DNA of 64,000 nt, taken from NCBI GenBank assembly GCA_002297545.1, contig DBLZ01000042.1, positions 2,374-66,373 of the forward strand. Direction: 5' to 3'. This DNA comes from Prevotellaceae bacterium UBA711. Its GTDB lineage: Bacteria; Bacteroidota; Bacteroidia; Bacteroidales; Bacteroidaceae. The notes beneath the pieces are model-generated. The model saw only the letters and a list, made by a program, of their open reading frames with translations, had not been told where the DNA came from and ran no database searches. A program made the position numbers and the translations under genes. Every line of letters starts with the position of its first letter. The first letter of the stretch is position 1. Below, in pieces: positions 2,102 to 52,526 of the stretch.

Positions 2102-2200
2102 GGCCACACACACGAAACACACCGGCATCGGTCATACCTTATATTATAATACGCGCGCACGAACAGGACAAACCTGCAGACGCGCATCACAATCAAGCAC

Positions 2201-2767
2201 ATGAACTGCGAAATAGACATCAAGCAAGCCGTGGACTGCCTCCGCAAGGGGGGCGTCATCCTATACCCCACCGACACGGTATGGGGGCTGGGATGCGATG
2301 CCACCAACGAGGCGGCCGTGAGACGTATCTATGAAATCAAGCAGCGCCAGGACGCCAAGGCCATGCTGTGCCTTGTGGACAAGCCCGACCGCATACAGCG
2401 CTACTTCCGCACCATCCCCGACGTGGCATGGGACATCTTCGACTCAGCCAACTCGCCTGTGAGCGTAATACTGGACGGTGCCGAGGGCGTGGCTCCCAGC
2501 CTGGTGGCTGAGGACGGATCGTTGGGAATAAGGGTGACGCGAGAGCAATTCTCGCATGACATCTGCTACCGCCTGCAACGCCCCCTCGTGAGCACCAGTG
2601 CCAACATCAGCGGAGAACCCACGGCACGCACCTTCCGCGAAATAAGTGAGGAGATCAAGTCACAGGTGGACTACATCTGCTCCTTCCGCCGCGGCGACAA
2701 CATTCCCGGCGCGCCAAGCCGCATAATCAAGCTGGGGCTGGACAGTAGCGTGAAGATCATCCGATAA
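2201..2767 (+). CDS. tsaC: L-threonylcarbamoyladenylate synthase (YrdC/TsaC/Sua5 domain protein)
   Basis: 188 aa. YPTDTVWGLGCDATN and STSANISGEP are typical YrdC-domain motifs. Confidence 0.85.
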   Translation: MNCEIDIKQAVDCLRKGGVILYPTDTVWGLGCDATNEAAVRRIYEIKQRQDAKAMLCLVDKPDRIQRYFRTIPDVAWDIFDSANSPVSVILDGAEGVAPSLVAEDGSLGIRVTREQFSHDICYRLQRPLVSTSANISGEPTARTFREISEEIKSQVDYICSFRRGDNIPGAPSRIIKLGLDSSVKIIR

Positions 2768-2841
2768 AGGGTTGTGAGGCTATCGCCTCCACGCAAGCCT
2801 TTCCTCCCCCCTCACCACCCCTGCCACAAATAGCACACCAC

Positions 2842-4638: not shown

Positions 4639-4872
4639 CGATATTCTCTGTCCGTGCCCCTGTGCATAGACAAAGGCCCTGACATTTATCCCACCGGGCG
4701 TTCATCAGGGTCTCCATCCAAGACAACCTCCGAAGTCCCTGTTTTGCCCTTACAGACTTACATTCAAACACCTATATATATGACAAGAACAGCAATACAA
4801 CTGCCTCCAATAGACATTATTTATTCCCAAACATACCGACACTCCAGATGGCTGTGGACAACAGTATGAGGA

Positions 4873-4940
4873 CTTACGTGAGTTCGGGATAAGAAACATG
4901 TTATAAAAGTTGGTAATATCTTGTCCCGAACTCACGTAAG
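4873..4940. repeat. perfect 17-bp inverted repeat (cttacgtgagttcggga / tcccgaactcacgtaag) with a 34-nt loop
   Basis: Read directly: 4873-4889 is the reverse complement of 4924-4940. It lies in the AT-rich spacer downstream of the ClC gene. Confidence 0.7.
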
Positions 4941-5195
4941 ATATAACCGTACAAGGACTGGGCACAACCACATTATTCTCCACTGTAGACTCTCCACTAT
5001 GCGGCATGGATCCTAATAATTCTGATTATAGACGTGGATATAGTAGCTCAACGCCAGATGCCAATGGAGGAATCAGATTAGCCACAAAATGCATTCATAT
5101 CATTTCCAACCTGTCTGGCAGATCCTATAATATGTGGTATCCTTGTAAACCAGAAGAAGTACAATGGAAATATAATTTGATAAACATGTAATAAT

Positions 5196-5693
5196 ATGTT
5201 TAGAATCAAGAGTAATATCATATTGTCTCTATTCTTTATTTTTGCATCTGCATCATGCAACAACACCGAAGTACCTACTACTAATGCCATACACATAGGA
5301 CACACATTTGAACCAATCGTAACCTCCATGGTGCCTACTTCAATTATATCCCTACCTAATGGTGTATCATTTGAGGGTATCATAATAAATTCCGCATCAG
5401 AGCTCATTAACAAAGTGCATCCAGATATAATCAACACAGACCATCAATATGAAACAATGAATTACTCGGATAGTAGTCTCATCTCTTTGAGATTTAGGTT
5501 ATTCTACTCTCCTATTGATAGTAAGCATAACATATTACAGGATGCGAATGGTGACATAATCGTGCAGCAATTGCTATCTGTTAATGAAACCATGAATAAG
5601 GACGGTTACTTCATCATGATTAATATGTCAACAAGCAAACTTCCATCCAATGCCAATGTCCGCATAGAGCAGTCGCTTACATTTATTCCATAA
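5196..5693 (+). CDS. hypothetical lipoprotein (AT-rich islet)
   Basis: 165 aa. N-terminal signal plus lipobox (LFFIFASASC). Markedly lower GC than the flanking genes. Confidence 0.5.
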   Translation: MFRIKSNIILSLFFIFASASCNNTEVPTTNAIHIGHTFEPIVTSMVPTSIISLPNGVSFEGIIINSASELINKVHPDIINTDHQYETMNYSDSSLISLRFRLFYSPIDSKHNILQDANGDIIVQQLLSVNETMNKDGYFIMINMSTSKLPSNANVRIEQSLTFIP

Positions 5694-5711
5694 CCTGTCG
5701 ATAATAATATG

Positions 5712-5755
5712 ACGGCAAATGGCTTCCGACACAATAATCGGAAGCCATTTGCCGT
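5712..5755. terminator. bidirectional hairpin terminator between convergent genes
   Basis: 18-bp perfect inverted repeat acggcaaatggcttccga / tcggaagccatttgccgt with an 8-nt loop, flanked by A/T runs. Confidence 0.6.
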
Positions 5756-5955
5756 TATATCAATAGAGTAGCAAAAACGCCTGCACATGATGGGACGCTA
5801 CATGACACAGACCGGACCAAGTCACCACACAAAACACTACACGCCTATGCCACAATCTCTACCCCAACCCATCCTTTTACCTAAACAAGAAGTACTGGAC
5901 GCGCTGCGGCGCTTTGCACGCGAATACCGCCCGGCATAGTCGGGAGCACCAAGTC

Positions 5956-6546
5956 CTACACGGCCAAGTCGAGGCTGTTCTCCATAATCATCTTGCGCAG
6001 ATTGAGCGTGGCATAACGCATGCGCCCCAAGGCCGTATTGATGCTCACGTTGGTAATGCGCGCAATCTCCTTGAAGGACAACTCCTCGTAGAAGCGCAGG
6101 TGTACTATTTCCTGCTGCACCATGGGCAAGCGTGAGATCATATTGCCCAAGGTCTGCACGTCAGCCATACGCAACATTTCCTCCTCGTGGCATTCCTGTG
6201 CAAACCCGGAATTGTTGTATATCACATCCATCTGCCCGTCAGTGTCCAGCCTGAATGTGCTTTTATTGCTTCTCGTGGCATCAACCACCAGGTTATGGGC
6301 AATGCGCATGAGCCAAGCCGAGAACTTACCCGTGGTGCGATACTGATGCCCACGGATACACATTATGGCCTTCATGAAAGTCTCCTGAAACACGTCATTG
6401 GCCCTGTCCACGTCCTGAGTCAGGCGCACAATGTATGCAAAAACACGTTCCTGATTACGTGACAACAATACATCGAAAGCCTCGTCTACACCTTGCTCAT
6501 ACAATCCCACCAGATCATGGTCGGTCATTGCAGCGTACTTGCTCAT
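5956..6546 (-). CDS. RNA polymerase sigma-70 factor, ECF subfamily
   Basis: 196 aa. Region 2 (DVFQETFMKA...FSAWLMRIAHNLVVD) and region 4 HTH (LSFKEIARITNVSINTALGRMRYA). Confidence 0.9.
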   Translation of the reverse strand: MSKYAAMTDHDLVGLYEQGVDEAFDVLLSRNQERVFAYIVRLTQDVDRANDVFQETFMKAIMCIRGHQYRTTGKFSAWLMRIAHNLVVDATRSNKSTFRLDTDGQMDVIYNNSGFAQECHEEEMLRMADVQTLGNMISRLPMVQQEIVHLRFYEELSFKEIARITNVSINTALGRMRYATLNLRKMIMENSLDLAV

Positions 6547-6928
6547 TCTTCTATGCTATTTCAATTAAGGAGTAGACATTTCTCTATAGGCTTCTGCTTG
6601 TGTTTGGTTGTACGTTACGGTTGTCTCCATGCCTGTTTTCACAGACACCGGCAGCAAAGTACGCCTTTTTTCATGAAACCAGCAAGCATTTGCCACTAAA
6701 AGTTGCGCTTTTCCCCACTCCAAGGAAACATTTCTGCCATACGTACGCCCAATTGCATCATTCTATGCCCACTCTGTGCAATATATAGCGTGGAAATACC
6801 GTTCGCACGTTTTTACATCGCTCATTCAACTTTCCCCTTGCCCCATGGCCATATTACGGACAAAAATACATAACTTTGTCTCAGCTAACAAACAACCGGG
6901 ACATTTCATCCGTAAAACATCTATAGAT

Positions 6929-7945
6929 ATGAGCAGACACACACACCTTGCAACAGCCCTGCTATGCATAGGGCTGATGGCTATGAGCACAGCATGCGGC
7001 ACAGGCAGACATAGCACCGGCACCCCCGACAACTGGGTAACAATCACCAACGGCCAACTGTGGCTCACCCCCGAGGGCGACACCGTGCAGGCCCACGCTC
7101 CCGGCTTCCTGCGCCAGGGCAACACGTGGTACATGGTGGGAGAAGATCGGGGAAAGGAATATAATCCAGACGTGAATCTATATAGCAGCACCGACCTGCA
7201 AACGTGGCACTTCGTCAAGAAGATTATCCGGAACGGCGTCACAAGCCCCGACCTTGGCACAAAGCGCATGATAGAGCGGGCCAAAATCCTCTACAATGCC
7301 AAGACCAAGCGCTACGTGGTGTGGTGCCATTGGGAGGCGAGCAACTACGGTGCCTCTGAGGCGGCATGCTTCTCCAGCGACCGCATCGATGGCGACTACC
7401 GTTTGGAATGGAGCGGTCGCCCCATGGGCATCAAGAGCCGCGACTGCAACGTATTCGTGGACAACGACGGTACGGCATACTTCATCGCCACCACAGAGGA
7501 AAACCAGCACCTCGGCCTTTTCCGTCTCTCCGACAACTATCTATCCGCTGCCGCCCACACGCAGCTCTTCCCCGGGCAACAGCGCGAGGCACCGGCCATC
7601 GTACGCCTGGGCAACCGCTACTTCATGTTCTCTTCGGCCTGCACTGGCTGGGCGCCCAACCAATGCAAACTATCATGGACCGATGACCTACACCGTGGAT
7701 GGAGCGATCTGGAGCCTATAGGAGACAGCAAGGCATTCCGCACCCAACCCGCCGCCATACTGGAGATACGCGGCACCCGCGCCACCACCTACCTCTACGT
7801 GGGCGACCGTTGGAAGGACCCCACCCTGGCCGAGACCAAGACCATCATGTTTCCCGTCACCTTCACCGACACGTCATGCGACTTCCAGTACCGCGACTCT
7901 TTCCAGATCAACTTCAAGACCGGAGAATGGCGCGAAAAGAGGTAA
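6929..7945 (+). CDS. glycoside hydrolase family 43-like lipoprotein
   Basis: Start chosen at the internal ATG that gives a signal peptide/lipobox (MSRHTHLATALLCIGLMAMSTAC). Five-bladed-propeller GH43-like blocks (WYMVGEDRG, YSSTDLQTWHF, RDCNVFVDNDGTAYF). Confidence 0.75.
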   Translation: MSRHTHLATALLCIGLMAMSTACGTGRHSTGTPDNWVTITNGQLWLTPEGDTVQAHAPGFLRQGNTWYMVGEDRGKEYNPDVNLYSSTDLQTWHFVKKIIRNGVTSPDLGTKRMIERAKILYNAKTKRYVVWCHWEASNYGASEAACFSSDRIDGDYRLEWSGRPMGIKSRDCNVFVDNDGTAYFIATTEENQHLGLFRLSDNYLSAAAHTQLFPGQQREAPAIVRLGNRYFMFSSACTGWAPNQCKLSWTDDLHRGWSDLEPIGDSKAFRTQPAAILEIRGTRATTYLYVGDRWKDPTLAETKTIMFPVTFTDTSCDFQYRDSFQINFKTGEWREKR

Positions 7946-8033
7946 CAAAACAGCCTTAGACTTCAAATCCGTATCTCAGACGAAACAAGACTCTGCCCAC
8001 AGTCCCTTTTACAATTGTGCTGGATTATAAAAC

Positions 8034-8065
8034 AACGCGGCCGATTTTACAAAATCGGCCGCGTT
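8034..8065. terminator. bidirectional hairpin terminator
   Basis: aacgcggccgatttt-ac-aaaatcggccgcgtt, a 15-bp perfect stem between convergent genes. Confidence 0.7.
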
Positions 8066-8101
8066 GTAAGTATAGACTAATAGTCCCCATTCATTCGGCT
8101 G

Positions 8102-8860
8102 TTACCACACTCTTTTCTTGGATGCCGTGATATACAAATGTCCCTTTGCCGGGTTGACAACGCGTCTTCCCATAAGGTCGTACACAGCCTCGCGCTGACA
8201 TTTGTCCGATGTCACTCCATCTATGCCGGTTACAAGTTTGTCAAAATTTGCTTTGGAGAATATAAGTCTGTCGCCATCGTAGCACTCTGACAGGTATCTT
8301 ACACTGCCATCTGTCACGATTGTTCCGCAGGTGATATAATCAAGGTTTGGAGAGCCTATTCCCTCTATCCAGTAGCCCTCTCCCGCATCGCTATAGTCAC
8401 GATACTTTGTAATGAGAACACGCCGGTCTATACCCTCTATACAATATGTCCTTTCGTCTGCAATTATCATGGCAGGTATCTCAACATCATCGTTTGATTC
8501 ATTGTCAAGGTATGGAACTACCGGATAAAAGACGTCACCTGAATGCAGGCTGAAATCCATCAATGGCCAGACTTTGCCATCTTCATCGAGACTATAGATT
8601 AGTCCATTATCTTCGTATTGAACGAACTTCCAAATATCATGGTCATCGTCCAAAGTTTCCCCGCAGAGAATTGTAGCATTGGCACCATTGATAACAGTGT
8701 CACCGACAACAGATATTTTCCAATAATAATCATTACATGGCATAAGCGTGTTTTTGTTATGATATATCCACGTTTTGCCCGGAGTATATAGCTTCTGCTG
8801 AGCTTGGATGCATAGACCGGCAGACAGAAGCATCATGACGATAATTGCAATTTGTTTCAT
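8102..8860 (-). CDS. secreted hypothetical protein with T9SS C-terminal sorting domain
   Basis: Start at the internal Met gives signal peptide MKQIAIIVMMLLSAGLCIQAQQ. The C-terminus VYDLMGRRVVNPAKGHLYITASKKRVW matches the Por/T9SS CTD pattern. Confidence 0.65.
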   Translation of the reverse strand: MKQIAIIVMMLLSAGLCIQAQQKLYTPGKTWIYHNKNTLMPCNDYYWKISVVGDTVINGANATILCGETLDDDHDIWKFVQYEDNGLIYSLDEDGKVWPLMDFSLHSGDVFYPVVPYLDNESNDDVEIPAMIIADERTYCIEGIDRRVLITKYRDYSDAGEGYWIEGIGSPNLDYITCGTIVTDGSVRYLSECYDGDRLIFSKANFDKLVTGIDGVTSDKCQREAVYDLMGRRVVNPAKGHLYITASKKRVW

Positions 8861-9428
8861 AGTTGTTGATGTTAAGGTTAAACTTTGAGATTGCAACTGT
8901 GACTGCAAAAATACAAAAATATATCAAACAATTGTGTAAGTTATCTATTTTTCATAGAAATACTCTATATTTCTTATCATGAGGCTATTATTATAGGTAG
9001 CTCTAAGCCGTTAATCATAGTTTGCAAATAAAAACAAGAAGATACTCATTATCCTTCATAAGTTAGGTTTCCATTTCGTTCTTATAGTACCGTTTAGTAG
9101 AAAGTATTGCGAACTATGTCGAGACAAAACAGAAAGCAATACAGCATATATAAAGACTAAACGCTTGAAAAGGCAATTACAAAGCACTCCCCCCATTGTC
9201 GGTCTAATGAACAGTTTTCCTCTATAAACAGAACAGACCACCCAATCCATTCCGGTAACAAACGTTGATTTAGGGTTAAATAGAGAATGATTTTTACCGG
9301 ACAGGCGTTATTATCAGGCCGAAAGGGGGCTTAGCCACTATCAAAATCAGCAAGAACAAGGCATTAAAGTCATTTACCGGACACCAATGATGGCGTGTAG
9401 CCGCTTCTTGTAGCAACGACGCAAAATA

Positions 9429-9505
9429 AACCGGTTTATTCCATCAAATGAACCGGTTTATTCTGCACAAAGAACCGGTTTATTCAATTGAACAAACCGG
9501 TTTTT
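9429..9505 (+). repeat. four direct repeats with exact 22-bp phasing and a palindromic AACCGGTT core
   Basis: aaccggtttatt at 9429, 9451 and 9473, and aaccggttttt at 9495. Conserved 12-13 nt followed by ~9 variable nt. Confidence 0.75.
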
Positions 9506-9675
9506 GCATTCACTCGGCCATGGAATGTGCTTTCCATGGCCATGGGGCGTGCGCTCCACGACCACGGAGAATATGCCGAAACCACACGTCAACCACCTTG
9601 GAGCTCCAATATGGAATGGAGTCCAACGCTGCAACTTTGGGGCGAGTACAGGCAGACATGCCCCTTCGCAAATGG

Positions 9676-10540
9676 TCACCTTCCACCCTTTGCCTTGGGG
9701 GTGAACCTATACCTGAACGTCAACGTTGCATATTGATGTAGGAAGCGTTCGCCACCCTCGGTGTGGGTGGTGGCAGTGATGTCGGCATAGACATGCTTCT
9801 GGTTGTTGAGGAGGTCATGACCATAGAGTATCAGCTCAGCACGGTTCTGCATGAAGGAGAAGTCCACCTGTGCATTCAGCAACACCTGGCTACCGTTCAG
9901 GATGGCAGAGTCATACCCACGGTCGAGAATGTACCGGGGCGAGAGGGTAAACTTCCACTGTCCCAGCTTGTAGCGCAGTCGCAACTCCGTGGTATAGTTG
10001 AACAAGTTGCGCGTGGTCTGGGCCGGGTCGCTATAGGAATGACGGTTCCACCGAAAAGTATGGAACGAATAGGCCAGCCAGTCGCCGCCGGTGTACATGA
10101 GCGCAAGTTTGTCCTGCAGCAGCGACTGTCCATGACGGTTGTACGTCATGCCCGTGGCATCGTCCACTATGGTCATGATACCATAGCGCCCGTCATACGT
10201 TCCTGAGACGACATTGCTCAGCATCAGCTCCTTGGCCGGGTTGCACTCGTAGGAAAGGCGTGCACTCCACACGTCGCCACCGCGCACGTTGCGCTTCTGT
10301 TCGGTGTAGGCACCTACATGTGAATCGTAGTGCAGGACGGTGGCAATGGGGTCAATGCTCCGTTGATAATTGAACGAGAATGACAAGGCCTGACTGTGCT
10401 TTGCCCGCATCATGGAGAACTGCAGTCCTATGTCGATTGTATAGGACTTTTCCAGGTCGGGATTGCCCTTGCGTATGTACAGAGGATTAGTATTGTCGGT
10501 GTAGGCTATGCAGTCCATAATGTCGGCAGGTTTTATAATC
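9676..10540 (-). pseudogene. C-terminal fragment of an outer-membrane beta-barrel (OMP_b-brl_3 / TonB-receptor-like) gene split by the prophage
   Basis: Beta-barrel-type alternating sequence, ..IIKPADIMDCIAYTDNTNPLYIRKGNPDLE.. motif, C-terminal ...TLTFRYRF. There is no plausible N-terminus. The matching N-terminal fragment is at 50676-52525. Confidence 0.75.
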
Positions 10541-10606
10541 CGCAAAACGAAATGTTCACGCGTTTTGAAACGAAACGTATATTTTATCAAAACGAAGTGT
10601 ACCGCT
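10541..10606 (+). promoter_or_regulatory. attR-like prophage end: three contiguous putative transposase-binding repeats
   Basis: The motif aaACGAAnnGT has its ACGAA core at 10547, 10570 and 10592 (22-23 bp phasing). This resembles the contiguous R1-R3 sites of Mu. Confidence 0.6.
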
Positions 10607-10726: not shown

Positions 10727-13700
10727 TTACGCTACTTCGACTATCGCCTTATACGCGACCACGCTTTCGGCCTTCACGATTTTGCCGCGGAAGGCGAGAC
10801 GCGACCCCATATTCGTGTTAGCGAACGACGCATCATAACCCGCATTCACGCACAACACACCGCCACTCGGGTACGCGCTGGTGACGCTACGGTAAACCGC
10901 ACGCGCTGAGGATAAGCCTATCAAGTACTTGTCTCCATAGTAGGTAGAGCTACTGCCGTTGACAGTACCTACAGGAACTACATCCATGTATTTGCCATGG
11001 TAGACTGCCGTTATCCACTGGTCATTGGCGGTCTTACCCTGGACCATACGTGTGGTGCCGTCGGGCATCCATATACGCCATTTGCCGACATTGCCACTGT
11101 CGTTGGGTAGGTCTACATTGTCCATCATGTCGCACTTGTGACCGTATATATCTTCGTAACCGAGACAGCTGATATTGTTGACCTGGGTCACTGTCGTCCT
11201 GCCGAAATCTTCCTTGATCAGATACCATGCGTATTGGTGGACTACACCATCTACCATGCTGTTGGTGATGCCGTGGTCTATGGCGTAGGCTTCATCAAAG
11301 CCAATGGTATCCTGCATGCCGTATTTGGCCGTGCCGCCGGTAATCCTGCTATTGGTATTAGAGCCTGCGCCGCACTGCTCCTGGCTATTTCTGCGGCCAT
11401 ACTTGGCATAGAACAGGTTGGCTATACGAGAATGCATCATGGCGTCTATTTGCTGCATGCCTCTGCTCACGCTGTAGTAGTGGAAGTCGGTCCATGTCAT
11501 GCTGGCGGCTGTACTGCCGCCACTGATGACGGCACGGAGCGTGGTACCTACTAAGCTGGAGCCAACTATGGCACACATATGTTCGTCATAGGCTACCCAG
11601 TCGGGTTCCATATCCTCTATCCTGTCGCTGTTGCTCAGTACTACTTTGTCAAACTCTGCCGTGTTCAGAATGGAAAAATGGAGCAGTACGGAATTCTTTG
11701 GCACATCTGATATGATGTACATACCAGGTTCAAATTTGCAACCCAATATGGGCACAATGACCGTATCCACTACCCTACCCTCTGCATCGGTAAAGACACT
11801 GCCCACAAGGTTGGTACCGGGTACTGTCGGGAAACGTACCCTCTTATGTACTGAGACATCCACCTTGCAGACGGAATAGATGCTGTCTGTACTTATAGAG
11901 TCCATTATGGTAGCTTTACCGGCCATGACCTTCTTTCCAGGAATGTAGCCTCCACTCAACTTCTTAATGTCATCCAATGTCAATACCGTGGCTTCAGGAA
12001 TCGCCGGCATCCTGTCTTTGGAATTGGCGCTGAAACAACTATAGTGCTTATTTCTAAGATAGTCATTGATACCCTTTCCCCAGTAGAACGGTTCGTACAT
12101 CATAAAGTCGCCTTCACTGCCATCCAGCCTGGCCGGTGTGCCATCTGTATAGTAGTTAGAGTTGGTGTCATCCAACGGACTGTAGGTCATCTCGCCGTCC
12201 AAATTATTCATTATGGTATCCACGCCTACCATCTTCACGTTGCGTGTGGAGGCTTTCCTTGTAACCTTGGCCAGGACACGGTGGCGCTTCTTCAGTATGG
12301 CCGAGATGTGACCACTTGGCACGTACTCTGTGCCACTGTTGCTGCCAGTGCCGTTGTCAAGATTGGTGACATTAGCGTCATCGGTAATACTGTCGTCAAA
12401 CTCTATCATAGTGTACTCGGGCAACACGATATTCAACTCGTCATAGTGAGCCGTCCATTTGGCAAGGTCTTCGTCTGAGGGATACCGATTAAGCCTGTAT
12501 GTTCCTATTAGCTTGCATTCAGGCGTGAAGTTACTCTTTGCATCCACTCCTCCTGCGGTCATATACCTATTAAGCAGCGTGCCGTCTCCTTCCATATCCA
12601 CACCGGTGATACGCATGTTCTTTATGTTGGCACACCTGCCCAGCAACGTCTGCCAGTCAAGATTTGGACATCCGGCGAAGATGAATGTACCGATATTGGC
12701 ATAGCTCTCTATCAAAAGGCCATCTGGTTTCAGTTGGGCAAGATACTCCAGCCTCAACGCTGTAAGCGTGCGTGGCAAGTATGCAGTGGCCAACGGGGCG
12801 CCATGGGCGAAGTTCACACTCTCAACCTCAGTACCTCCTGCGTCAAGGAACTCCAGCTTATTTTGGTTACTCAAGTCAAGTTCTTTGGATGTGCTGCTGC
12901 CCGTCTTGGCATGCTTCTGGTTTCTGACATTGAGCCTGCGCAGAGACCTGCAGGAATCTATGACAAGCCACCAGCCTGTAGAACCGCCGGTCTTTGCTTC
13001 CAGGTTCAGTTCACGCAACACCTTGCATTTGCCAAGGTCCAAGCCGTTCTTGAGGTGTTCGGCTGCGTCTGTCATGTCAAGGACCTCCATGCGGCTTGCG
13101 CCATAGAGCCTGACGGGGTCGTTCACCGTAAGGTTACGTGTGATACTCAAGTCTGCGGTCTCGCCTTCCTGTACGATACCTGTGTTGGCTATGTTGGGCG
13201 AATTATTCGTTCCGTAGCCAAAGGCGTAAACCTCGTTGGCGGTGATACGTATCACATCAGCATCATCGGAGGCGGAACGGGACAAGTACATGTCCACGTT
13301 GTCGGAGGTAAAGGTGCTTGTGCCGTACTTTGCGTCCAACAAGGCAAAACGGTTACGGATGAAGAACTCCCGGTGTGCCCTGTTGGAACCTTGCAGAGCG
13401 TATATGAACGGCCATACCTTGCCGTACATCTCCTGAATGGCAGGACGGATGTACTTTATCTCGCCAGACTTGTTGAAGGCTCTATCCGACCAGTTGCCTG
13501 CCTGCTCGTTGTTGAACATGTCAAGCACGCGTTCATCTGTCATCACGCCACGGAGGTTGTTAGCCAGGCGTCTGAGGTCTTCCTGCAGGTTGGCCAGGAC
13601 GAGGTTCCAAAGCCAGCTGTCCCTGCCCTCGAAGGCATACTTGGCGGCCTCGGCATCATAGGTGTCGCGGTCTGTGGTGTACTGATATACGAGGAAACAG

Positions 13701-16700
13701 TCATTACGCTTGCCCAACTGTGTGTCACCATCGTAATAGGTAATGTACCACTTCAATCCGTCCCAGGTACGGAGCATCATGTTCTTGGCACGCTGGTCCA
13801 CAGAGAGGTAGTAGTCGGTCCATAGATAGTATGTCAGGATGAAGTCCTTGTCAAAGTACTGGTCTATCTCGTCCTTGAATTTCTGGCTGACGAAGGTGGA
13901 CAGGTCATTGGAGTCGGCTCCAGCGGGCACACAATTCCTTATCCATCCGAACAAACGCCTTACAGCATTACGTTGAGCTTCGGTCAGGCCAGCCCATTTC
14001 ACGTCGTCCGGGTAATTCGTTTCCAGCCCGGCATCGAAATTGGCCGCCACATCATCATCACTGTCGCTTTGGAACAAGCACAGTTTCTCACCGTTGTTCA
14101 ACGTCTCAAAGGTCATGGGCATGGACGGATTGAAGCCGCTGACATTCGTCATGCCGAACAAATCCTCGCTCTTGGACTTTTCATTGTTAAAATTATACTG
14201 GCCGTAATACTCGCTTTCCCCATCCACGGTCTCGGCACAGAATACGTCTATGGGGAAACCATCTATGGCTGTCCTGACGTTAATGGCGGACAACTGATTG
14301 CCTCCGTTCTCATACTGGTGACGCTGCGGAGGGGTGAGCAGTCCAAGTTCCTTCATGGAATCATTGAATAGCTTGGCTCCACCGGTATTCATGGACATGG
14401 AACTGTCGGAATAGTCTGACTTCAACGTATACAGATTCATAGGGATTGCTCCGGGGCGCATGGGGTACCTGTTCTCCCCGTAAGGGTCCTTCACACCGTT
14501 TACGGTGAAGCTGAGGAGTTCACCGCCTTTGGCGTAGTAGATGCGGATGTTCTTGCTCGGGTACTTAGTAGACGATGTTCCCTGTATGCGGATGTAGCAG
14601 TCCCGCAGGACGAAATCATACTCTTTGCCAAACGGGGAGTAGAAATACACGTCGGCCTTGAAGTCGGTCTTCTTGTTGTTCTCAGCATACACGTCATCCA
14701 GCTTGTTTTTGCGAACAATGCGGAGGACGCCCTTGCCCTTGGCACGCAGTTTGTCGATATCCACACCACCCTTGTCTCCAAGGATGTCGTTATCATCAAA
14801 GAGCGTCATCATCTCATCAGAACTTTCGGCATCAACTATGCGGTTGTCAAGCTCCTCGTCATCAGATATGGCACGATTGTAGATGCGGATGCTGCGTATC
14901 TCCACATCTGCCTCCGAACTATCTATGACAATACTCTGCGGTACGTCTTGGGCGAAATTGAATGAGGTATCATACACGTCAGCACCTGTCCTGTTGCCGT
15001 CCACATAGATGTGCATGAGCCTGTTGTCGTCACGGGTACAGACAGTGAAGGCTACCTTCATCCAACGGTCGGAGACATAGTTGGTGCCCAGCTTTATTTC
15101 ACGTGTCACAAGTTCATCGTCCTCGTTGGTGTAGTCCACGGTCTGTCCTGTCTTGAAACTTGCGTTCTCGGCGGTAAAGAGTAGCCCCTTGCCGTCGTGG
15201 ATGCAGCTGACCACATTGGCGCTGCGCTTCATGACGTTGCTCACCTTCATGGTCATCTCTATTGTGATGCCAGTAGACTTGATATCGGAAGCAAAGGGCT
15301 TGTAGTCTATCGTGGCTTTGGCCCCGTTGGTGAGCCTGAGGCTCCCGCCCGTCCATCCGTTGGAGTTCCAGTCAAAGTCCTCGAATATGGTCTTGATGCC
15401 ATTGGACTCCCATCGCGCTGGGTCACTTTCGCTGTTGCTGCGTCCGGCCGCATCAAACTTGGCTATTATGCCGTACAGAGCCTCCGACAGGTCTATGCTA
15501 CTATCCTTAACGTCAATGTTCAGGGTATAGCTTTTCGAACCGACCTTCATCATGAGGGTGTTGGTACCCTTGGAAGTGAAGCGGTTAATATACTTCTGCA
15601 TCTGACGCGGGGCATTGATGGTACTGGTATGCTTGCCGTTAAGGTACACATCTACTTTAGCCGGGGTAGCCGCAGGGTCGTAAGCAATGTAGTCAAAGCT
15701 CATCTGCTCGTACTGGGCTGCAGTGAGAACAGGGGGGATATGTGCGGATTCAAGTATCCTGCTTAACGTGTCAGTATACTTTATACCTATAAAGGGGGCA
15801 TTCTGCCCGGCCTTGAGGATGTCAATGTAAATGCTGTCGCTCTTCAGGCCGTTGCGCTCAGCTACAAGCTGGACGGAATGCCAACCGGGGGTGAGGGACG
15901 AGCCGTTGATGGAGAACGACCCATTGACCGTGCCACTCTTGTTGATGGTCTGCGATATTGGTGTTGTCGCCCCGTCCAAATACATGGACACGTCTTTCGT
16001 TCCGCTGCCTGTTATCGTAAAGGGTATCTCTATGATGTCGGAACTTTTGTATCCACCTCCAGAAATGGTGTCGGCAAGGTTGTAGCTGCTCGTCAACGTC
16101 AAGGTTATCACGTTGATGCTGGTATAGGCCTGCTTGGTCTGCCTGGTGCCGTCTTCCGTAGTAACGTTGGCCTTTACATATATGTCAGTGGTGCCTACAA
16201 GAAGATAGTCGGATATATCAAGGTGGTATGTGCCTGCGCTTACGCCCTTGATAGTCTGCTCGTATGTAGTGGTAGTACCACGGCTAACAATGATTGTGAG
16301 ATCGGCCTTGATGCCGGTGGCATCTCCTTCGGAGTTTACGTGGTTATAAGTATAAGCCAGTTCTGCATGTCCGCCTTCCTTCACCTGCGCCTTATCAAGG
16401 GCTGCTGTCAGGATGATACGGCTTGCCGTGGTACCACCACTGCCACCACCGCCAGTGAACTCCGCAGATGCTATGACGCCGCCCTGCTTGTTCAAGATGT
16501 TCAGGGTGTTCTTGTCACCGTCAGGGATGACCTCAACTCCTCCCACTGCAGCATCCCCTATTTCCTTAATCCTACGAGTAACAACTGCATTCTGCACAGG
16601 ATTGGTGCTGTCTTCGTCAAGACTCTCGTCCACCTGTACCTGGTCTATTCTGAGAGACACGTTACCGTCCGCATCCGGGGATACCTCCTCTCCGTTGAGA

Positions 16701-17617
16701 GAGATGGACTTTATCTTGCCGCCGCCATACTCTTCCCAACTGGCAGGGATGAGAAAACTGGATATATCACTGCCCACAAAGCGATAGTCCTTCCATTTGC
16801 CCGCACTCTCCTCAAAGGTGATTATCATACCAGGCTTGTCCTCGTCATCAATACCGGCATCTACCAACGCTGCGATGGCGCTGTCCTTGGTATAGTAGCC
16901 TTCGACAAGCGGTTGCTCGGAGGTCACGTTGTAGAAACCACTGCCGGAACCACTACTGCAGAATTCTACAAGTGTTCCCTCATTATCATCCCACACATAG
17001 CCTGTGCCACCCAAAAGATATACCTTGTCCTTCTGTATGCTGTCTTTGCTTTCATTAAGATACAGGTCTACAGTGGGCCAATCCAGATGGTACTCCACTC
17101 CTGTTGCTCCGTCTGTCCGGCAGGCAAAAAGCTTCTTAGCCTGTACATAGACTATACTACCACCATCAGGTGCTGCTGTCATGGCCAGTTGGGCATCTGG
17201 AACCATCTCATCAAACCTTGCTGTGGTTCCGCCCTCCGCCATACTTATACGGCTGTCATATCGGCCAATGTTTGAAGCAGCCTCGTTGGCCGCTTCAGTT
17301 GCCTCCAATGCCGTCTGAGCAGCCCGAGAGGCCGTATCGGCTGCCGACTCCGCAACGCCAGAGGCCTGGATGGCCATCTCGGAGGATGTATTCGCATTCT
17401 TCGCTGCTGCATTAGCCACTCCTGCTGCATCGGTGGCAGGCTTTGACAATAGCGACAACGGTGCCAGTACAAGGCTGTCACCCTGCATGGCTGGAAGGCC
17501 GGTAAGTCCATTCAATGATGTGGCCACGCCCAACTCCTTTATGTCTGTACTCTCTGCTTTGATGTCATTGAGAATCTCTTTCTTAATGTCGTTCTTCTCT
17601 TGTTCGGTTAGTGCCAT
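10727..17617 (-). CDS. giant multidomain receptor-binding/tail fibre protein (DGR target); ~2296 aa from ATG 17617
   Basis: Longest ORF in the window (alternative start 17671). Motif-level recognition of a ConA/LamG-like block (WMKVAFTV..MHIYVDGNRTG), a CotH-like block (IRIQGTSSTKYPSKN, DQRAKNMMLRTWDG..YYDGDTQLG) and an LRR-like block. The C-terminal segment carries the VR. Confidence 0.8.
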   Translation of the reverse strand: MALTEQEKNDIKKEILNDIKAESTDIKELGVATSLNGLTGLPAMQGDSLVLAPLSLLSKPATDAAGVANAAAKNANTSSEMAIQASGVAESAADTASRAAQTALEATEAANEAASNIGRYDSRISMAEGGTTARFDEMVPDAQLAMTAAPDGGSIVYVQAKKLFACRTDGATGVEYHLDWPTVDLYLNESKDSIQKDKVYLLGGTGYVWDDNEGTLVEFCSSGSGSGFYNVTSEQPLVEGYYTKDSAIAALVDAGIDDEDKPGMIITFEESAGKWKDYRFVGSDISSFLIPASWEEYGGGKIKSISLNGEEVSPDADGNVSLRIDQVQVDESLDEDSTNPVQNAVVTRRIKEIGDAAVGGVEVIPDGDKNTLNILNKQGGVIASAEFTGGGGSGGTTASRIILTAALDKAQVKEGGHAELAYTYNHVNSEGDATGIKADLTIIVSRGTTTTYEQTIKGVSAGTYHLDISDYLLVGTTDIYVKANVTTEDGTRQTKQAYTSINVITLTLTSSYNLADTISGGGYKSSDIIEIPFTITGSGTKDVSMYLDGATTPISQTINKSGTVNGSFSINGSSLTPGWHSVQLVAERNGLKSDSIYIDILKAGQNAPFIGIKYTDTLSRILESAHIPPVLTAAQYEQMSFDYIAYDPAATPAKVDVYLNGKHTSTINAPRQMQKYINRFTSKGTNTLMMKVGSKSYTLNIDVKDSSIDLSEALYGIIAKFDAAGRSNSESDPARWESNGIKTIFEDFDWNSNGWTGGSLRLTNGAKATIDYKPFASDIKSTGITIEMTMKVSNVMKRSANVVSCIHDGKGLLFTAENASFKTGQTVDYTNEDDELVTREIKLGTNYVSDRWMKVAFTVCTRDDNRLMHIYVDGNRTGADVYDTSFNFAQDVPQSIVIDSSEADVEIRSIRIYNRAISDDEELDNRIVDAESSDEMMTLFDDNDILGDKGGVDIDKLRAKGKGVLRIVRKNKLDDVYAENNKKTDFKADVYFYSPFGKEYDFVLRDCYIRIQGTSSTKYPSKNIRIYYAKGGELLSFTVNGVKDPYGENRYPMRPGAIPMNLYTLKSDYSDSSMSMNTGGAKLFNDSMKELGLLTPPQRHQYENGGNQLSAINVRTAIDGFPIDVFCAETVDGESEYYGQYNFNNEKSKSEDLFGMTNVSGFNPSMPMTFETLNNGEKLCLFQSDSDDDVAANFDAGLETNYPDDVKWAGLTEAQRNAVRRLFGWIRNCVPAGADSNDLSTFVSQKFKDEIDQYFDKDFILTYYLWTDYYLSVDQRAKNMMLRTWDGLKWYITYYDGDTQLGKRNDCFLVYQYTTDRDTYDAEAAKYAFEGRDSWLWNLVLANLQEDLRRLANNLRGVMTDERVLDMFNNEQAGNWSDRAFNKSGEIKYIRPAIQEMYGKVWPFIYALQGSNRAHREFFIRNRFALLDAKYGTSTFTSDNVDMYLSRSASDDADVIRITANEVYAFGYGTNNSPNIANTGIVQEGETADLSITRNLTVNDPVRLYGASRMEVLDMTDAAEHLKNGLDLGKCKVLRELNLEAKTGGSTGWWLVIDSCRSLRRLNVRNQKHAKTGSSTSKELDLSNQNKLEFLDAGGTEVESVNFAHGAPLATAYLPRTLTALRLEYLAQLKPDGLLIESYANIGTFIFAGCPNLDWQTLLGRCANIKNMRITGVDMEGDGTLLNRYMTAGGVDAKSNFTPECKLIGTYRLNRYPSDEDLAKWTAHYDELNIVLPEYTMIEFDDSITDDANVTNLDNGTGSNSGTEYVPSGHISAILKKRHRVLAKVTRKASTRNVKMVGVDTIMNNLDGEMTYSPLDDTNSNYYTDGTPARLDGSEGDFMMYEPFYWGKGINDYLRNKHYSCFSANSKDRMPAIPEATVLTLDDIKKLSGGYIPGKKVMAGKATIMDSISTDSIYSVCKVDVSVHKRVRFPTVPGTNLVGSVFTDAEGRVVDTVIVPILGCKFEPGMYIISDVPKNSVLLHFSILNTAEFDKVVLSNSDRIEDMEPDWVAYDEHMCAIVGSSLVGTTLRAVISGGSTAASMTWTDFHYYSVSRGMQQIDAMMHSRIANLFYAKYGRRNSQEQCGAGSNTNSRITGGTAKYGMQDTIGFDEAYAIDHGITNSMVDGVVHQYAWYLIKEDFGRTTVTQVNNISCLGYEDIYGHKCDMMDNVDLPNDSGNVGKWRIWMPDGTTRMVQGKTANDQWITAVYHGKYMDVVPVGTVNGSSSTYYGDKYLIGLSSARAVYRSVTSAYPSGGVLCVNAGYDASFANTNMGSRLAFRGKIVKAESVVAYKAIVEVA
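10794..10906 (-). repeat. DGR variable repeat (VR) including a 14-nt GC-rich IMH-like end (gggtcgcgtctcgc)
   Basis: 89/113 nt identical to the TR at 37044-37156 when read on the minus strand. 12 of 20 core mismatches fall on TR adenines. Encodes ARAVYRSVTSAYPSGGVLCVNAGYDASFANTNMGSRLA. Confidence 0.8.
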
Positions 17618-17655
17618 AATTGTATATGTGATATAATCATTTGTATTGATCTTGG

Positions 17656-20085
17656 TTATTCTCCCGTCCACAGTCCATCTACCGCATACCAGGCTCCAAG
17701 CATGGACTTTAATTTGATGACCATATTGGGTTGCATCATAAGATAAGAGCCTCTACGTTCCGTATAAGGCACATTCATGTTTTCAAGCACGGCATCGCTT
17801 CCTTGTGGAGCATACGGATTCAACTTGTAAAACAAGGACTCACCGTCTGCCGTTTTTATATAAGTAGCATTCTTCTCAATGTCCCACTTTGTATTCTTAA
17901 TGAAGAACGAAAGTTCCAGACCATCATACAAGGTAGCCTGTGGTAAGTGTATATACTGTACTGTTGTCGGCTCGTTTATCAAAAACCAGTTGTATGGTTC
18001 CTGTAACGGGTCAATGGTATATGTCACTTCGGATATTGTCCGGGTCTTGGCATAATAAAGGCTGCTATTGAGCACGCCATAGAATTGCCCGTTCTTGGCC
18101 ACTATACTTCCATCGTCCAATACCTTGAAGTTGCCGTTGGCAGTAACAAGGCCCTCCAGTCGGATATTCTCTGCAGTGAGCTTGATTACAGTCTTTCCAT
18201 CCTCCTCTACAGCCACGCCTATGAGAGCCAGTTTACCGTCTGCTGTCTGCATGTATATGCCGGAACCCTCTGGCCTAATCATAAGCCCGGTCTCCTTCAA
18301 CGCCTCGTCATCCTTGTCGAATACCGCTGCCGATATTTTAACAAGACGCTCGCTCTGTTCGAGCAATGTCCGATAGGTATGCGTAAGGGTTTCGATACGG
18401 TCCGTGCTGAGCACAAGCATATATACCAGAACCTCCCCCGTAAAACGGAGCGAAAAATCACCCGTACCGTTCCATAGACCCGATAATGTCATCTGCTGAT
18501 ACCCCTCTGTCACATCCAAATCATCGGTATATGACATTGGCTGGTATACCACGAAACCGTCATTATTGATATTGCTGAAGCCGATGGTCATAGTTCCGGG
18601 CTTGCGAACCTTGTAGAAGAATGAAAGATATACAGCTGCCGGTTCTTTCATGCCGTCCGCATTGGTCTTAATTTCCGGCAAGCCGCGATAGTCCGTGAAT
18701 TTCTGCGTAATGGCGTCGTTCTTTATCCTTACCACACGTCGTCCTTCATCCGTATATATATTCGCTCCGTCCCCTTGGCTTGTCAGGACATTGCCGTTGG
18801 CGAATATCCATCGCTTGCCCAACAGGAAGAACGTGGTCTCATTATTGACATCCCAATGCTTCATGCCATCCCCGAATGTGGGATTGGAAAGGAAGCCCTT
18901 GTCCTGCAGGAAATCCTTGCGCACCGCCTCCACGGCAGAGTTTATCTTGCCCTCGGTAATCTCGAACTGGGTCCTCACGTCCGTACCTGTCGTAAGCAGG
19001 AATGTGCCACGCAAATAGACATTGTCAGAGTAAAGGCCGTTGCCGTGGGGACGGTTGTCCGTCGGGAACATGTCATCTTGAATGCCGTCCAGATTACCTA
19101 ACCTTGCACGCAGGCATCCGTCAAGGTTTGTCGTACTGACACCGTCATAGACATCCACGCGTGGATGTCCGTCCTCTGTAGCGCTTATGAGGATGAAGTT
19201 CTGACGCTTTGCATCGCTGAGGCTACCCATCAATACACACTCATCATCTTTCTCCGGCACACTCTTCCACTTCTCAAATTCGCGCTTTTCAACCAGTATT
19301 CCATCTGCAAAACTATGACTGACACTCACCCAGTAGCTCTTCACTCTATCAACGCTGAAGGTCTGGCAGCGGATGAGATCACCGGACAGAAAGGTATTCT
19401 CCTGTTCAAATTTGATGAGATATACCGTTTCATCGTAGTCCACGACCTCCTTTATCTTTCCATTGGCCGCAGAGACACATATCTGACCTCCCACGCTACG
19501 TACCTTGGAAATGAGCAACTCCAGCAGTACCATCGTCTGTCGGACGGTCAGATTATCAATGGTAAGATGTGTCTTTCCGTTTTCATCGGTCCACATACGG
19601 TATCCACTGCCAAACAAGCCGTCAACAAAATCGACGGTGCCGCCAATACTGTCGGATGTCACCTCGGCATACTCTACTTTGTCCGTAGTACGTACAGGCT
19701 GATCCATACAATCATTGAAAGCGTGGCCACTCCATTTGTCGGAGTCATCGGCATGTGCTGTAGTGTCGGCCTTGTCGGCATGTGCCGCGTCATCGGCATA
19801 TCCGACCTTGGCCTTTTCGGTCTCAATGACGGCCTCGGAACCGTCCTCGCTTTCACGCATCTGGTCTATGTAGACATAGCTGTCCGCGTCTATGCTGATT
19901 TTGTCCAGCGAATACTTGTTGGCATGGGTGTGGCCGGTGCCGTTTCCGCCACCAGGGGCAGACGTGACATTTATCACGGTACTGCCGCCTCCTGACTGCA
20001 CTATTCCGCCCAGTTCACGCAACCTCTCGCTACGCGGGCGGGGAGCACGTCTGGCTATATCCAGTTTATACTTCTTCTCCATCAT
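17656..20085 (-). CDS. large tail fibre/baseplate-associated structural protein
   Basis: 809 aa. Sits between the distal tail protein and the giant fibre. Gly-rich N-terminus. No enzymatic motif recognised. Confidence 0.45.
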   Translation of the reverse strand: MMEKKYKLDIARRAPRPRSERLRELGGIVQSGGGSTVINVTSAPGGGNGTGHTHANKYSLDKISIDADSYVYIDQMRESEDGSEAVIETEKAKVGYADDAAHADKADTTAHADDSDKWSGHAFNDCMDQPVRTTDKVEYAEVTSDSIGGTVDFVDGLFGSGYRMWTDENGKTHLTIDNLTVRQTMVLLELLISKVRSVGGQICVSAANGKIKEVVDYDETVYLIKFEQENTFLSGDLIRCQTFSVDRVKSYWVSVSHSFADGILVEKREFEKWKSVPEKDDECVLMGSLSDAKRQNFILISATEDGHPRVDVYDGVSTTNLDGCLRARLGNLDGIQDDMFPTDNRPHGNGLYSDNVYLRGTFLLTTGTDVRTQFEITEGKINSAVEAVRKDFLQDKGFLSNPTFGDGMKHWDVNNETTFFLLGKRWIFANGNVLTSQGDGANIYTDEGRRVVRIKNDAITQKFTDYRGLPEIKTNADGMKEPAAVYLSFFYKVRKPGTMTIGFSNINNDGFVVYQPMSYTDDLDVTEGYQQMTLSGLWNGTGDFSLRFTGEVLVYMLVLSTDRIETLTHTYRTLLEQSERLVKISAAVFDKDDEALKETGLMIRPEGSGIYMQTADGKLALIGVAVEEDGKTVIKLTAENIRLEGLVTANGNFKVLDDGSIVAKNGQFYGVLNSSLYYAKTRTISEVTYTIDPLQEPYNWFLINEPTTVQYIHLPQATLYDGLELSFFIKNTKWDIEKNATYIKTADGESLFYKLNPYAPQGSDAVLENMNVPYTERRGSYLMMQPNMVIKLKSMLGAWYAVDGLWTGE

Positions 20086-37017: not shown

Positions 37018-37043
37018 CACCCCGAACGGTGGAGTTCCCCATA

Positions 37044-52525: not shown

Positions 52526-52526
52526 G

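Follow-up and report, generated by a model that had tools for sequence, protein, structure and literature searches.

A 114-nt repeat in the 3′ end of a large tail-protein gene (positions 10794–10907 of the 64-kb stretch of DNA analyzed here, hereafter the window) is a genuine variable repeat (VR) of a Hankyphage-family diversity-generating retroelement (DGR), which, judged from sequence comparison, has likely drifted and become "stale" since it was last rewritten. The DGR of Hankyphage (Bacteroides phage p00, BK010646) was described by Benler et al. 2018 (PMC6199706), and its activity has been shown experimentally (PMC12135933). The original prediction of a DGR VR with a remote and inverted template is supported by an RT-3 RNA, by the motifs of the reverse transcriptase (RT), and by the homology to this active system. 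The DGR of the window is hence best read as an already known kind in a variant layout. The repeats and their surroundings are as follows:

10794–10907 (−): VR, 114 nt, encoding approximately residues 2256–2293 of the target protein; homologous to the annotated p00 VR
10770–10793 (−): VR-specific 3′ flank CTTCCGCGGCAAAATCGTGAAGGC, where the TR–VR homology ends
10727–17671 (−): target gene for a large tail/fibre-type protein, 2314-aa ORF from GTG
37043–37156 (+): template repeat (TR); its 27 adenines lie mainly in AAC/AAT codons
10534–50680 (no strand): Mu-like, Hankyphage-related prophage holding both repeats; approximate boundaries from synteny and homology to p00

The repeat pair and its 3′ boundary

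The window holds a single repeat pair, arranged as expected of a DGR—a noncoding TR beside an RT and a VR at the 3′ end of a protein-coding gene. The reverse complement of 10794–10907 aligns locally with 37043–37156 over 114 nt without gaps, at 90 identical positions and 24 mismatches (blastn E = 6e-23), and no further TR-like copy is found in the 64-kb window. For the pair 10794–10906 and 37044–37156, 89 of 113 identical positions had been counted by hand, a number that the formal alignment reproduces, with one extra nucleotide now included. Mismatches affect 12 of the 27 TR adenines versus 12 of the 87 other positions. The enrichment at adenines, on which the original prediction was meant to stand or fall, is significant over the full repeat (Fisher one-sided p = 0.0014; permutation 0.0014) and for the 95-nt core (p = 0.0003), whose earlier tally of 20 mismatches at 12 of 25 adenine and 8 of 70 non-adenine positions holds. 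The same is true for the four non-adenine differences in the 18-nt 5′ part and for the asparagine replacements in the encoded protein (N to V, T, S, Y, S, G, Y, and F), to which an additional Y to C change has to be added. The 12 non-adenine differences divide into six synonymous and six nonsynonymous ones, and nine of them are transitions.

The 14-mer GGGTCGCGTCTCGC occurs exactly twice in the window, namely at the 3′ ends of TR and VR, with 0.39 matches expected by chance if up to two mismatches are allowed. Both repeats had been described as ending in this identical GC-rich 14-mer with homology stopping there, and the alignment indeed diverges immediately after it. A shared 3′ boundary is expected of a DGR pair, and GGGTCGCGTCTCGC is, by its sequence and position, such a GC-rich, IMH-like boundary. 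The adjoining flank CTTCCGCGGCAAAATCGTGAAGGC is kept downstream of the VRs in p00 and the IMG/VR relatives and is missing after the TRs; it may be part of a target-recognition (IMH-like) determinant and is also coding (AFRGKIVKA). In IMG/VR, the VR 3′ end plus flank was found once, and a search for the exact TR 3′ end plus spacer found none. A BPP-1-like hairpin or cruciform after the VR was considered as well: GCCTTC...GAAGGC can pair, but the predicted fold does not outperform shuffled sequence (z = 0.01), relatives do not retain the pairing, and it was dropped as evidence.

The TR–RT module and the target protein

The TR is embedded in a module of genes and a structured RNA that resembles that of p00:

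36746–36979 (+): conserved 77-aa hydrophobic ORF directly upstream of the TR; phrog_38535 at 3.9e-30
37173–37325 (+): RT-3 RNA motif (Rfam RF03068), structured TR–RT spacer
37364–38665 (+): DGR reverse transcriptase, 433 aa, intact ORF
38662–39144 (+): DUF4376 protein, 160 aa, start overlapping the RT stop; Pfam DUF4376, phrog_19239
39657–41150 (+): thymidylate synthase and N6-adenine methyltransferase genes, accompanying the TR–RT module as in Hankyphage

Identity of the window TR is 87% to the p00 TR as annotated and reaches 95.5% for the TRs of IMG/VR relatives; among 62 distinct TRs, it bears one private state. In the 207 nt between the TR end and the RT start, the RT-3 RNA is matched with 137.7 bits against a gathering score of 40.5, covering the full model (1–148), and the motif takes the same position in p00 and six relatives. 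It is probably that part of the DGR RNA by which the RT is recruited or primed. The RT itself matches Pfam RVT_1 at 1.6e-12. In PDB, it is best matched by 8ub7_A, a reverse transcriptase of 328 aa (E = 1.5e-22), which we take to be the BPP-1 bRT, with RYCDD aligned to RYMDD and IGLRSSQ to IGSLTSQ. These motifs place the window RT in the DGR clade; its YxDD and its SQ motif are both intact, as a DGR calls for. It shares 78% amino acid identity with the p00 RT and 86% with its closest relative, and shows a dN/dS of ~0.09 versus relatives with five private residues only. As the RT evolves at this low dN/dS, the TR carries one private state, and the RT-3 match is full length, the module does not look decayed: RT, TR, and RT-3 RNA all look intact.

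The gene for the DUF4376 protein follows the RT in 79 of 80 IMG/VR RT relatives, and this protein is the only candidate for an accessory factor in a module without a recognizable Avd. Searches for an Avd-like match in Pfam, PHROG, and PDB returned none for the ORFs 36284–36589 and 36746–36979, the DUF4376 protein, and the small ORF of p00. Homologues of the 77-aa ORF at 36746–36979 are found at the equivalent place in L006, L016, and L026, and this ORF may have nothing to do with the DGR. Thymidylate synthase and N6-adenine methyltransferase are 79% and 65% identical on the amino acid level to the p00 genes, with the order kept.

For the target protein, the true start is likely the Met at 17617, giving ~2296 aa; a relative of 2315 aa that begins with MALTE... 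shows 61% identity. The VR had been placed 22 codons before the stop of a 2300-aa protein, which agrees with the ~21–22 codons found here (stop at 10727–10729). The protein shares 64% amino acid identity over 2081 aa with the p00 DGR target, matches phrog_14959, and weakly matches a tail-protein PHROG. The nearest relative of its C-terminus shows 74% amino acid identity in a collection of 5.8 billion proteins and 72% in IMG/VR. A C-type lectin domain has been reported for the homologous p00 target (PMC6199706). AlphaFold2 models of the window C-terminus (one of 260 aa, the other of 155 aa and built from a more varied alignment) reach a mean pLDDT of 63 and 61, with the VR segment below 50, and a Foldseek search of these low-confidence models for a C-type lectin in PDB and BFVD gave no PDB fold match at E < 0.5. 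Neither a PDB-sequence profile search nor Pfam at E up to 10 matched the C-terminus.

Remote layout and origin of the non-adenine differences

TR and VR are 26.1 kb apart and on opposite strands, and it is MuF—not the target—that is found upstream of the TR. Both repeats belong to the same prophage of a Bacteroidota host, with the target gene at one end and MuA/MuB-like genes at 45161–48087; its right end ...TTTGCGGATTATA matches the end of IMG/VR contig 3300018475_000223. Host genes with 54% GC flank it on both sides; a search of GTDB genomes for the empty site, using the split outer-membrane gene as query, found no relatives. The original prediction called a remote, inverted target unusual. 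This holds only in comparison with textbook cassettes, as the layout is standard in a large clade: of the 80 nearest RT relatives in IMG/VR, about 55 show the MuF–TR–RT arrangement with no VR within 2.7 kb, and the remote VRs of relatives sit at the contig end, on the strand opposite to the TR and ~26 kb away. Non-adjacent DGR targets inside prophages have been documented before (PMC5758913). Remote pairs on the same contig have adenine/non-adenine mismatches of 5/0, 12/0, and 15/0 within an unbiased set of five, and further such pairs of 11/0, 10/0, 10/0, 12/1, and 10/1. Since relatives with this layout show adenine-only differences, the remote inverted layout works for homing. A second scan with the target protein added almost no extra remote TR/VR pairs because target genes and RT modules are not co-inherited. 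The window pair itself departs from the strict rule that TR and VR differ at TR adenines only, with 12 of its 24 differences at other positions. As relatives of the same layout do follow this rule, the departure reflects the state of this copy and not the nature of the system.

The origin of these 12 differences was assessed against a family library of 62 distinct TRs and 123 distinct VRs—the window VR and 122 others. With 12 non-adenine mismatches to its best TR, the window VR ranks highest of all 123, the other 122 having 0–5. At 42 non-adenine positions that are invariant among the TRs, it deviates seven times, compared with zero deviations in 109 VRs and at most three in the rest. These seven of the 12 differences are private to the window VR, at sites invariant in all 62 TRs and nearly all of the other 122 VRs. 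At 11 of the 12 sites, it is the window TR that has retained the family state, which places the changes on the VR side. In the protein, the 12 substitutions include the scaffold changes V204A, G208S, S219L, and V/I234M, each of which occurs in 0–2 of 59 homologues. The privacy of the seven supports the earlier suggestion that the non-adenine differences mark drift since the last homing event or partial decay.

The mechanism, which we infer from BPP-1 and Hankyphage, would run as follows. The TR would be co-transcribed with the RT-3 spacer RNA, and the adjacent RT would make a TR cDNA, misincorporating opposite template adenines; the cDNA would then replace the VR at the 3′ end of the tail-protein gene and, thereby, recode AAC/AAT codons. 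With the TR–RT–DUF4376–ThyA–MTase module located between head-morphogenesis and early genes, homing would act in trans within the phage genome. The VR would have kept its adenine-recoding signature and the shared 3′ boundary and then gained ~12 ordinary point substitutions. New homing from the resident TR would erase all 12, and hence, the VR is termed stale: it would not have been successfully rewritten for a long time, despite an intact-looking RT, TR, and RT-3 RNA. Against this speaks that the rest of the DGR is intact and has been under purifying selection, which one would not expect after an idle period of the length implied by ~6 synonymous changes in 38 codons.

A rather unlikely competing explanation is a non-cognate pair generated by module exchange. 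Hereby, the VR would have been last written by the TR of an unsampled phage lineage before recombination joined it to the present module, and the non-adenine differences would be those between two TR lineages and not drift. Any family TR differs from the window VR by 12–15 adenine mismatches, so that the adenine bias alone is no proof that the resident TR wrote it. Module exchange is common in the family: among 78 distinct adjacent TR/VR pairs, 11 (14%) carry at least seven non-adenine differences, and each such VR fits another library TR with at most three; the remote pair L048/L110 sets a precedent with 19 non-adenine mismatches, its VR fitting a p00-like TR with one. The genome is also mosaic relative to p00 (RT 78% and target 64% identical versus 23–31% for head and transposition genes), and three to five of the 12 non-adenine VR states (positions 13, 16, 85, and 98) are polymorphisms known from other TR lineages. 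Nevertheless, the resident TR fits the window VR best among all 62 TRs, with 12 non-adenine mismatches as opposed to 15 for the next best. A pattern describing any TR compatible by adenine-only change (the VR base or A at each position, for an 80-nt core plus the 14-mer) had no match in GTDB representative genomes and JGI metagenomes; the better-matching partner that could have overturned the original prediction is thus found neither there nor in the 64-kb window or the 62 distinct TRs. A donor TR would further need seven private changes at family-invariant sites, where TRs show 0–4 and 46 of 62 show none, and the exact 14-nt 3′ boundary is common to the resident TR and VR, though it is variable between lineages. 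As the lineage is poorly sampled (closest RT 86%, closest target C-terminus 74%), an unsampled donor is possible, and so is a second TR elsewhere in the genome, of which 64 kb is visible.

It is improbable that the DGR is active and produces changes beyond adenines—by a relaxed RT, by deamination of cDNA or RNA, or by positive selection on the binding surface. Such activity would fit the fully functional look of RT, TR, and RT-3 RNA, the share of C-to-T or G-to-A changes (half of the non-adenine ones), and the distribution of changes in the protein: where at least 80% of homologues agree on a residue, the window protein departs from it in 4 of 18 columns within the VR versus 4 of 106 outside (p = 0.015). 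These numbers are small, however, and one of the four deviating columns inside the VR is templated by the TR itself. Moreover, relatives with 80–86% identical RTs give strictly adenine-only pairs, homing would reset all non-adenine positions including the two just upstream of the 3′ boundary, and the synonymous half of the 12 changes is fitted better by ordinary drift than by selection. The coexistence of a TR, RT, and RT-3 RNA under purifying selection with a stale VR as the only visible one also leads to the reading that the module is kept for another target in trans—outside the window, in the host genome or a co-resident phage—or that the RT tolerates or produces non-adenine changes, to which we give little credence. 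Finally, a chance or paralogous likeness between a tail-gene fragment and an intergenic sequence has practically no probability: only about half of the mismatches are at adenines, as such a likeness would allow, yet it is ruled out by the repeat E value and the adenine enrichment given above, by the position of the TR directly beside an RT-3 RNA and a DGR-type RT, and by the homology of both repeats to TR and VR as annotated in a DGR whose activity has been shown by experiment (PMC12135933). Drift of a genuine VR hence stays our preferred explanation.

Significance and relation to known DGRs

A whole clade of Hankyphage relatives carries template and RT on the strand opposite to the only target, at a distance of ~26 kb, and recoding is still adenine only. 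This layout constitutes natural evidence that phage DGRs can home without template and target being close together or in a fixed orientation. One pipeline in wide use for DGR detection demands a repeat no more than 20 kb from the RT and, by its own statement, misses remote targets (PMC8144416). Given this limit, this abundant clade of gut phages may be under-annotated. The window pair would be a concrete case of TR and VR getting out of register through drift, which, together with module exchange in 14% of the adjacent pairs, might serve as a calibration for calling DGRs "active" from sequence alone. In addition, RT-3 of Rfam can now be assigned a place, namely that of the TR–RT spacer RNA in the Hankyphage-type DGR family.

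The closest known system is p00, to whose DGR the TR/RT-3/RT module of the window is 75–79% similar. TR, RT-3 RNA, RT, DUF4376, ThyA, and MTase are homologous and in identical order; the targets are homologous, with the VR at an equivalent C-terminal position and with equal repeat length and register, and the host element is a Mu-like transposable prophage in both cases. On the contrary, the p00 target with its VR, a small ORF, TR, and RT are contiguous and co-oriented at the right end of the genome, whereas the window TR–RT is found between MuF and early genes, on the strand opposite to the VR and ~26 kb away from it. For head and transposition genes, identity drops to 23–31%, and the TR/VR mismatches of p00 are 9/0 (adenine/non-adenine) as compared to 12/12 in the window.

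The mechanistic paradigm is the BPP-1 DGR (Mtd/Avd/TR/bRT). The window shares with it an adenine-rich TR that adjoins the RT, a VR in the 3′-terminal part of a gene for tail receptor binding, a GC-rich 3′ boundary that is common to both repeats and beyond which they are no longer homologous, and an RT homologous to that of 8ub7 with catalytic and SQ motifs kept. It differs in bearing neither a recognizable Avd nor a supported hairpin after the VR, and in its remote and inverted target, which is adjacent in BPP-1.

For phage-associated DGRs, VRs that are not beside the RT but within 50 kb in the same prophage have been reported by Wu et al. 2018 (PMC5758913). The window VR—non-adjacent, less than 50 kb away, and in the same prophage—resembles these remote-target DGRs of Treponema denticola and prophages. 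However, the prophage DGRs described there combine one adjacent with one non-adjacent target, whereas in the window and its relatives the only detectable target is the non-adjacent one.

Divergence of the variable repeat

The repeats of this diversity-generating retroelement (DGR) and its target are located as follows:
37043-37156, + strand: template repeat (TR), the adenine-rich copy, 17 nt before the RT-3 RNA match
10794-10907, - strand: variable repeat (VR)
10727-17671, - strand: ORF of the ~2300-aa tail/fibre-type target protein

The reverse complement of 10794-10907 aligns to 37043-37156 without gaps and with 90 of 114 positions identical, a formal reproduction of the hand alignment in the original prediction (89 of 113 on its coordinates). 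Further copies of the TR were sought by blastn across the 64-kb window, and the VR was the only one (E = 6e-23). The 24 mismatches fall on 12 of 27 TR adenines versus 12 of 87 other positions—an enrichment that is significant over the whole repeat (one-sided Fisher p = 0.0014, the same by permutation) and in the 95-nt core (p = 0.0003), for which 12 of 25 adenines versus 8 of 70 other bases had been reported as changed. The recoding of AAC/AAT codons at codon positions 1-2 of the target frame (N to V, T, S, Y, S, G, Y, F), the 14-mer GGGTCGCGTCTCGC closing TR and VR alike with similarity stopping directly beyond, and the placement of the VR near the target C-terminus, ~21 codons ahead of the stop, were found as predicted, so that all elements of the earlier observation are confirmed. 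An origin outside a DGR is excluded for this repeat. A hairpin can be drawn 3' of the VR, yet it is no better than chance.

The 12 non-adenine substitutions in the VR comprise nine transitions and three transversions, six being synonymous and six non-synonymous in the target frame. The resulting scaffold changes V204A, G208S, S219L, and V/I234M each occur in 0-2 of 59 homologues. For comparison, a family library of 62 distinct TRs and 123 distinct VRs, all in register, was used, and every VR was scored against every TR for the fewest non-adenine mismatches.

Fewest non-adenine mismatches of each VR to any TR
0 mismatches: 64 VRs
1 mismatch: 32 VRs
2 mismatches: 15 VRs
3-5 mismatches: 11 VRs
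12 mismatches: 1 VR (the window VR)

The best partner of the window VR is its resident TR; the next best TR needs 15 non-adenine mismatches. A second test counted deviations at the 42 positions that are non-adenine and invariant across all 62 TRs: 109 VRs show none, 11 show one, one shows two, and one shows three. The window VR shows seven (positions 4, 9, 54, 60, 73, 88, and 100), and at all seven the window TR holds the family state. Among the 123 VRs, the window VR is hence the most diverged from any template.

This divergence is best explained by drift after the last homing event, one of the two causes that the original prediction had suggested (the other being a partly decayed element), and the seven private deviations opposite a TR in the family state support it. 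Any homing event from the resident TR would overwrite all 12 non-adenine substitutions, including two that closely precede the 3' boundary; the substitutions would hence have arisen after the last rewriting. Exchange of modules, with the window VR written by the TR of an unsampled donor, is an unlikely alternative, even though such exchange is visible in the family: 11 of 78 distinct adjacent TR/VR pairs (~14%) are out of register by at least seven non-adenine positions, each of these VRs fits another library TR with at most three non-adenine mismatches, and the remote pair L048/L110 behaves likewise (cases in the Hankyphage family: L055, L086, L087, L099, L108, L117, L131, L135, L218, L232, and L048/L110; 7-19 non-adenine mismatches). 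As these VRs fit the TRs of other genomes, tail-gene/VR ends and TR-RT modules swap between lineages, and the window lineage is poorly sampled. However, a donor TR would need seven private changes at invariant sites, while the observed TRs carry at most four private states at any position, and a degenerate search of GTDB representative genomes and JGI metagenomes returned no adenine-only template for the window VR.

Relaxed adenine specificity, or selection focused on the VR, is more improbable still. Conserved columns deviate in the target protein more often inside the VR (4 of 18) than outside (4 of 106; p = 0.015), but one of the four in-VR deviations is templated by the TR itself, and the pairs of close relatives are strictly adenine-only.

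The TR-RT module and the target domain

Downstream of the TR lie the RT-3 RNA motif (RF03068) and the reverse transcriptase (RT), with two small ORFs on the 5' side:
36284-36589, + strand: 101-aa ORF between the MuF-like gene and the TR
36746-36979, + strand: hydrophobic 77-aa ORF (phrog_38535), conserved and adjoining the TR 5' side in genomes of the relocated layout
37173-37325, + strand: RT-3, full-length Rfam match, 137.7 bits versus a gathering score of 40.5
37364-38665, + strand: intact RT of 433 aa (Pfam RVT_1), the next gene after RT-3

Earlier work had described RT-3 only by its association with reverse transcriptase genes (PMC5737381). It is placed exactly between TR and RT in the window, in Bacteroides phage p00 (Hankyphage, BK010646), and in six relatives (L001 6156-6305, L006 2810-2959, L014 2822-2969, and others), and probably serves as the spacer or priming segment within the DGR RNA of the Hankyphage DGR family. 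The best solved relative of the window RT is a 328-aa reverse transcriptase (PDB 8ub7, E = 1.5e-22), which we take to be the DGR enzyme of Bordetella phage BPP-1; the window RYCDD aligns with its RYMDD, and the SQ motif is retained. The RT stop codon is overlapped by a DUF4376 gene, followed by genes for thymidylate synthase (ThyA) and an N6-adenine methyltransferase (MTase). No Avd-like accessory protein was recognised among the neighbour genes in the window, and the conserved DUF4376 gene is the sole candidate for this role. The 77-aa ORF has copies in relatives (L006 2382-2615, L016 2344-2577, L026 2383-2622) and no homologue in p00, while for the 101-aa ORF neither p00 nor the IMG/VR relatives have a homologue, and no protein family matches it.

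Judged by sequence, RT, TR, and RT-3 are not decayed. The RT evolves at a dN/dS of ~0.09 versus relatives—the same as among relatives with perfect TR/VR pairs—and carries five private residues versus 17 in the RT of a relative with an adenine-only pair; the TR has one private state among the 62 distinct TRs, and RT-3 matches at full length with a score like that of its relatives. There looks to be a tension between this functional-looking machinery and a sole visible VR that appears not to have been refreshed.

The VR lies in a C-terminal domain of ~145 aa (10730-11194, - strand) that is also found C-terminally in many phage fibre proteins (proteins P0154-P0266 and P0267-P0385), joined to very different N-terminal parts (PF12789, PF11133, collagen repeats, BspA LRR). 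Pfam has no model for this domain, and a fold match was not obtained; two AlphaFold2 models of the target C-terminus have low confidence across the VR segment, and fold and sequence searches gave no match to known C-type-lectin DGR targets. Support for a C-type-lectin fold comes from a published statement on the homologous p00 protein (PMC6199706).

The remote, inverted layout

The p00 genome has target and VR, a small ORF, TR, and RT side by side in one orientation at its right end. In the window, by contrast, the TR-RT-DUF4376-ThyA-MTase block is flanked by the MuF-like head gene and the early region and points away from the tail genes; hence the VR lies 26.1 kb off the TR on the other strand. 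The original prediction had called this remote, inverted target unusual: the layout stands, its rarity does not. Of the RT relatives in IMG/VR, the 80 closest (77-86% aa identity) divide into ~55 that share it, where a MuF homologue precedes the TR and a VR is absent within 2.7 kb, and ~25 arranged as in Hankyphage, where the VR precedes the TR by ~370 bp.

Where both repeats were recovered on one contig, the VR occupies a contig end, and ~25-27 kb separate it from the TR, which is on the other strand. An unbiased set of five contigs gave adenine/non-adenine mismatches of 5/0, 12/0, 15/0, 11/5, and 8/19; further pairs, from a pattern search biased by its demand for an in-register centre, gave 11/0, 10/0, 10/0, 12/1, 10/1, and 7/2. 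From these pairs, homing in the relocated-layout clade clearly appears to work across ~26 kb and across strands. DGRs are able to act in trans. The proposed cross-strand homing agrees with this and with the non-adjacent DGR targets already documented inside prophages (PMC5758913).

Several IMG/VR phage contigs end inside the VR (L276, 3300045988_027688; L289, 3300045988_012192; L267, 3300029861_000009; L286, 3300045988_064552; L110, 3300045988_050186), consistent with assembly breaks at a hypervariable site near the phage genome end. The relocated layout is the norm in a large clade that is apparently undescribed so far; at ~26 kb it falls outside the 20-kb search radius of a standard DGR detection pipeline (PMC8144416).

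A Mu-like prophage and its kinship to Hankyphage

Both repeats are contained in a prophage:
roughly 10534-50680: Mu-like prophage, ~40 kb
45161-48087: MuA-like and MuB-like genes
48592-49272, + strand: Peptidase_S24 (CI/LexA-like) gene, adjoining the former and likely the counterpart of Hankyphage RepC repressor
9676-10590 and 50630-52525, both - strand: split host ORFs

Host genes flank the prophage on both sides (RF3, ClC channel, ECF sigma factor, GH43, GH95, symporters), and a 40.9-kb IMG/VR contig ends in the same sequence as the prophage does on the right. A host gene for an outer-membrane beta-barrel protein was apparently split when the prophage transposed into it (prophage ends ~10534 and ~50680): the N-terminal part with CarboxypepD_reg is found to one side, the C-terminal part with OMP_b-brl_3 to the other, and both ORFs extend a few codons into phage-end sequence. 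No relatives of this gene were found in GTDB representative genomes. The GC content is 54% in the host flanks (1-10533, 50681-64000) versus 50% in the prophage, and a Bacteroidota species of higher GC is the probable host, rather than one of the known Bacteroides/Phocaeicola hosts of Hankyphage. One flank also bears a tRNA gene (62553-62624, + strand; Rfam tRNA, 71.8 bits).

For Hankyphage, diversification of the tail-fibre VR by the DGR has been demonstrated experimentally (PMC12135933). As a DGR variable repeat the window VR is genuine, and it belongs to this DGR family: window TR and VR align with the annotated p00 repeats, and aa identity to p00 amounts to 78% for RT, 79% for ThyA, 65% for MTase, and 64% over 2081 residues of the target protein. 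Head and transposition genes, on the contrary, reach only 23-31% identity—marking the prophage as a distant mosaic relative of Hankyphage rather than Hankyphage proper. The element belongs to a known type of system, here with a variant architecture.
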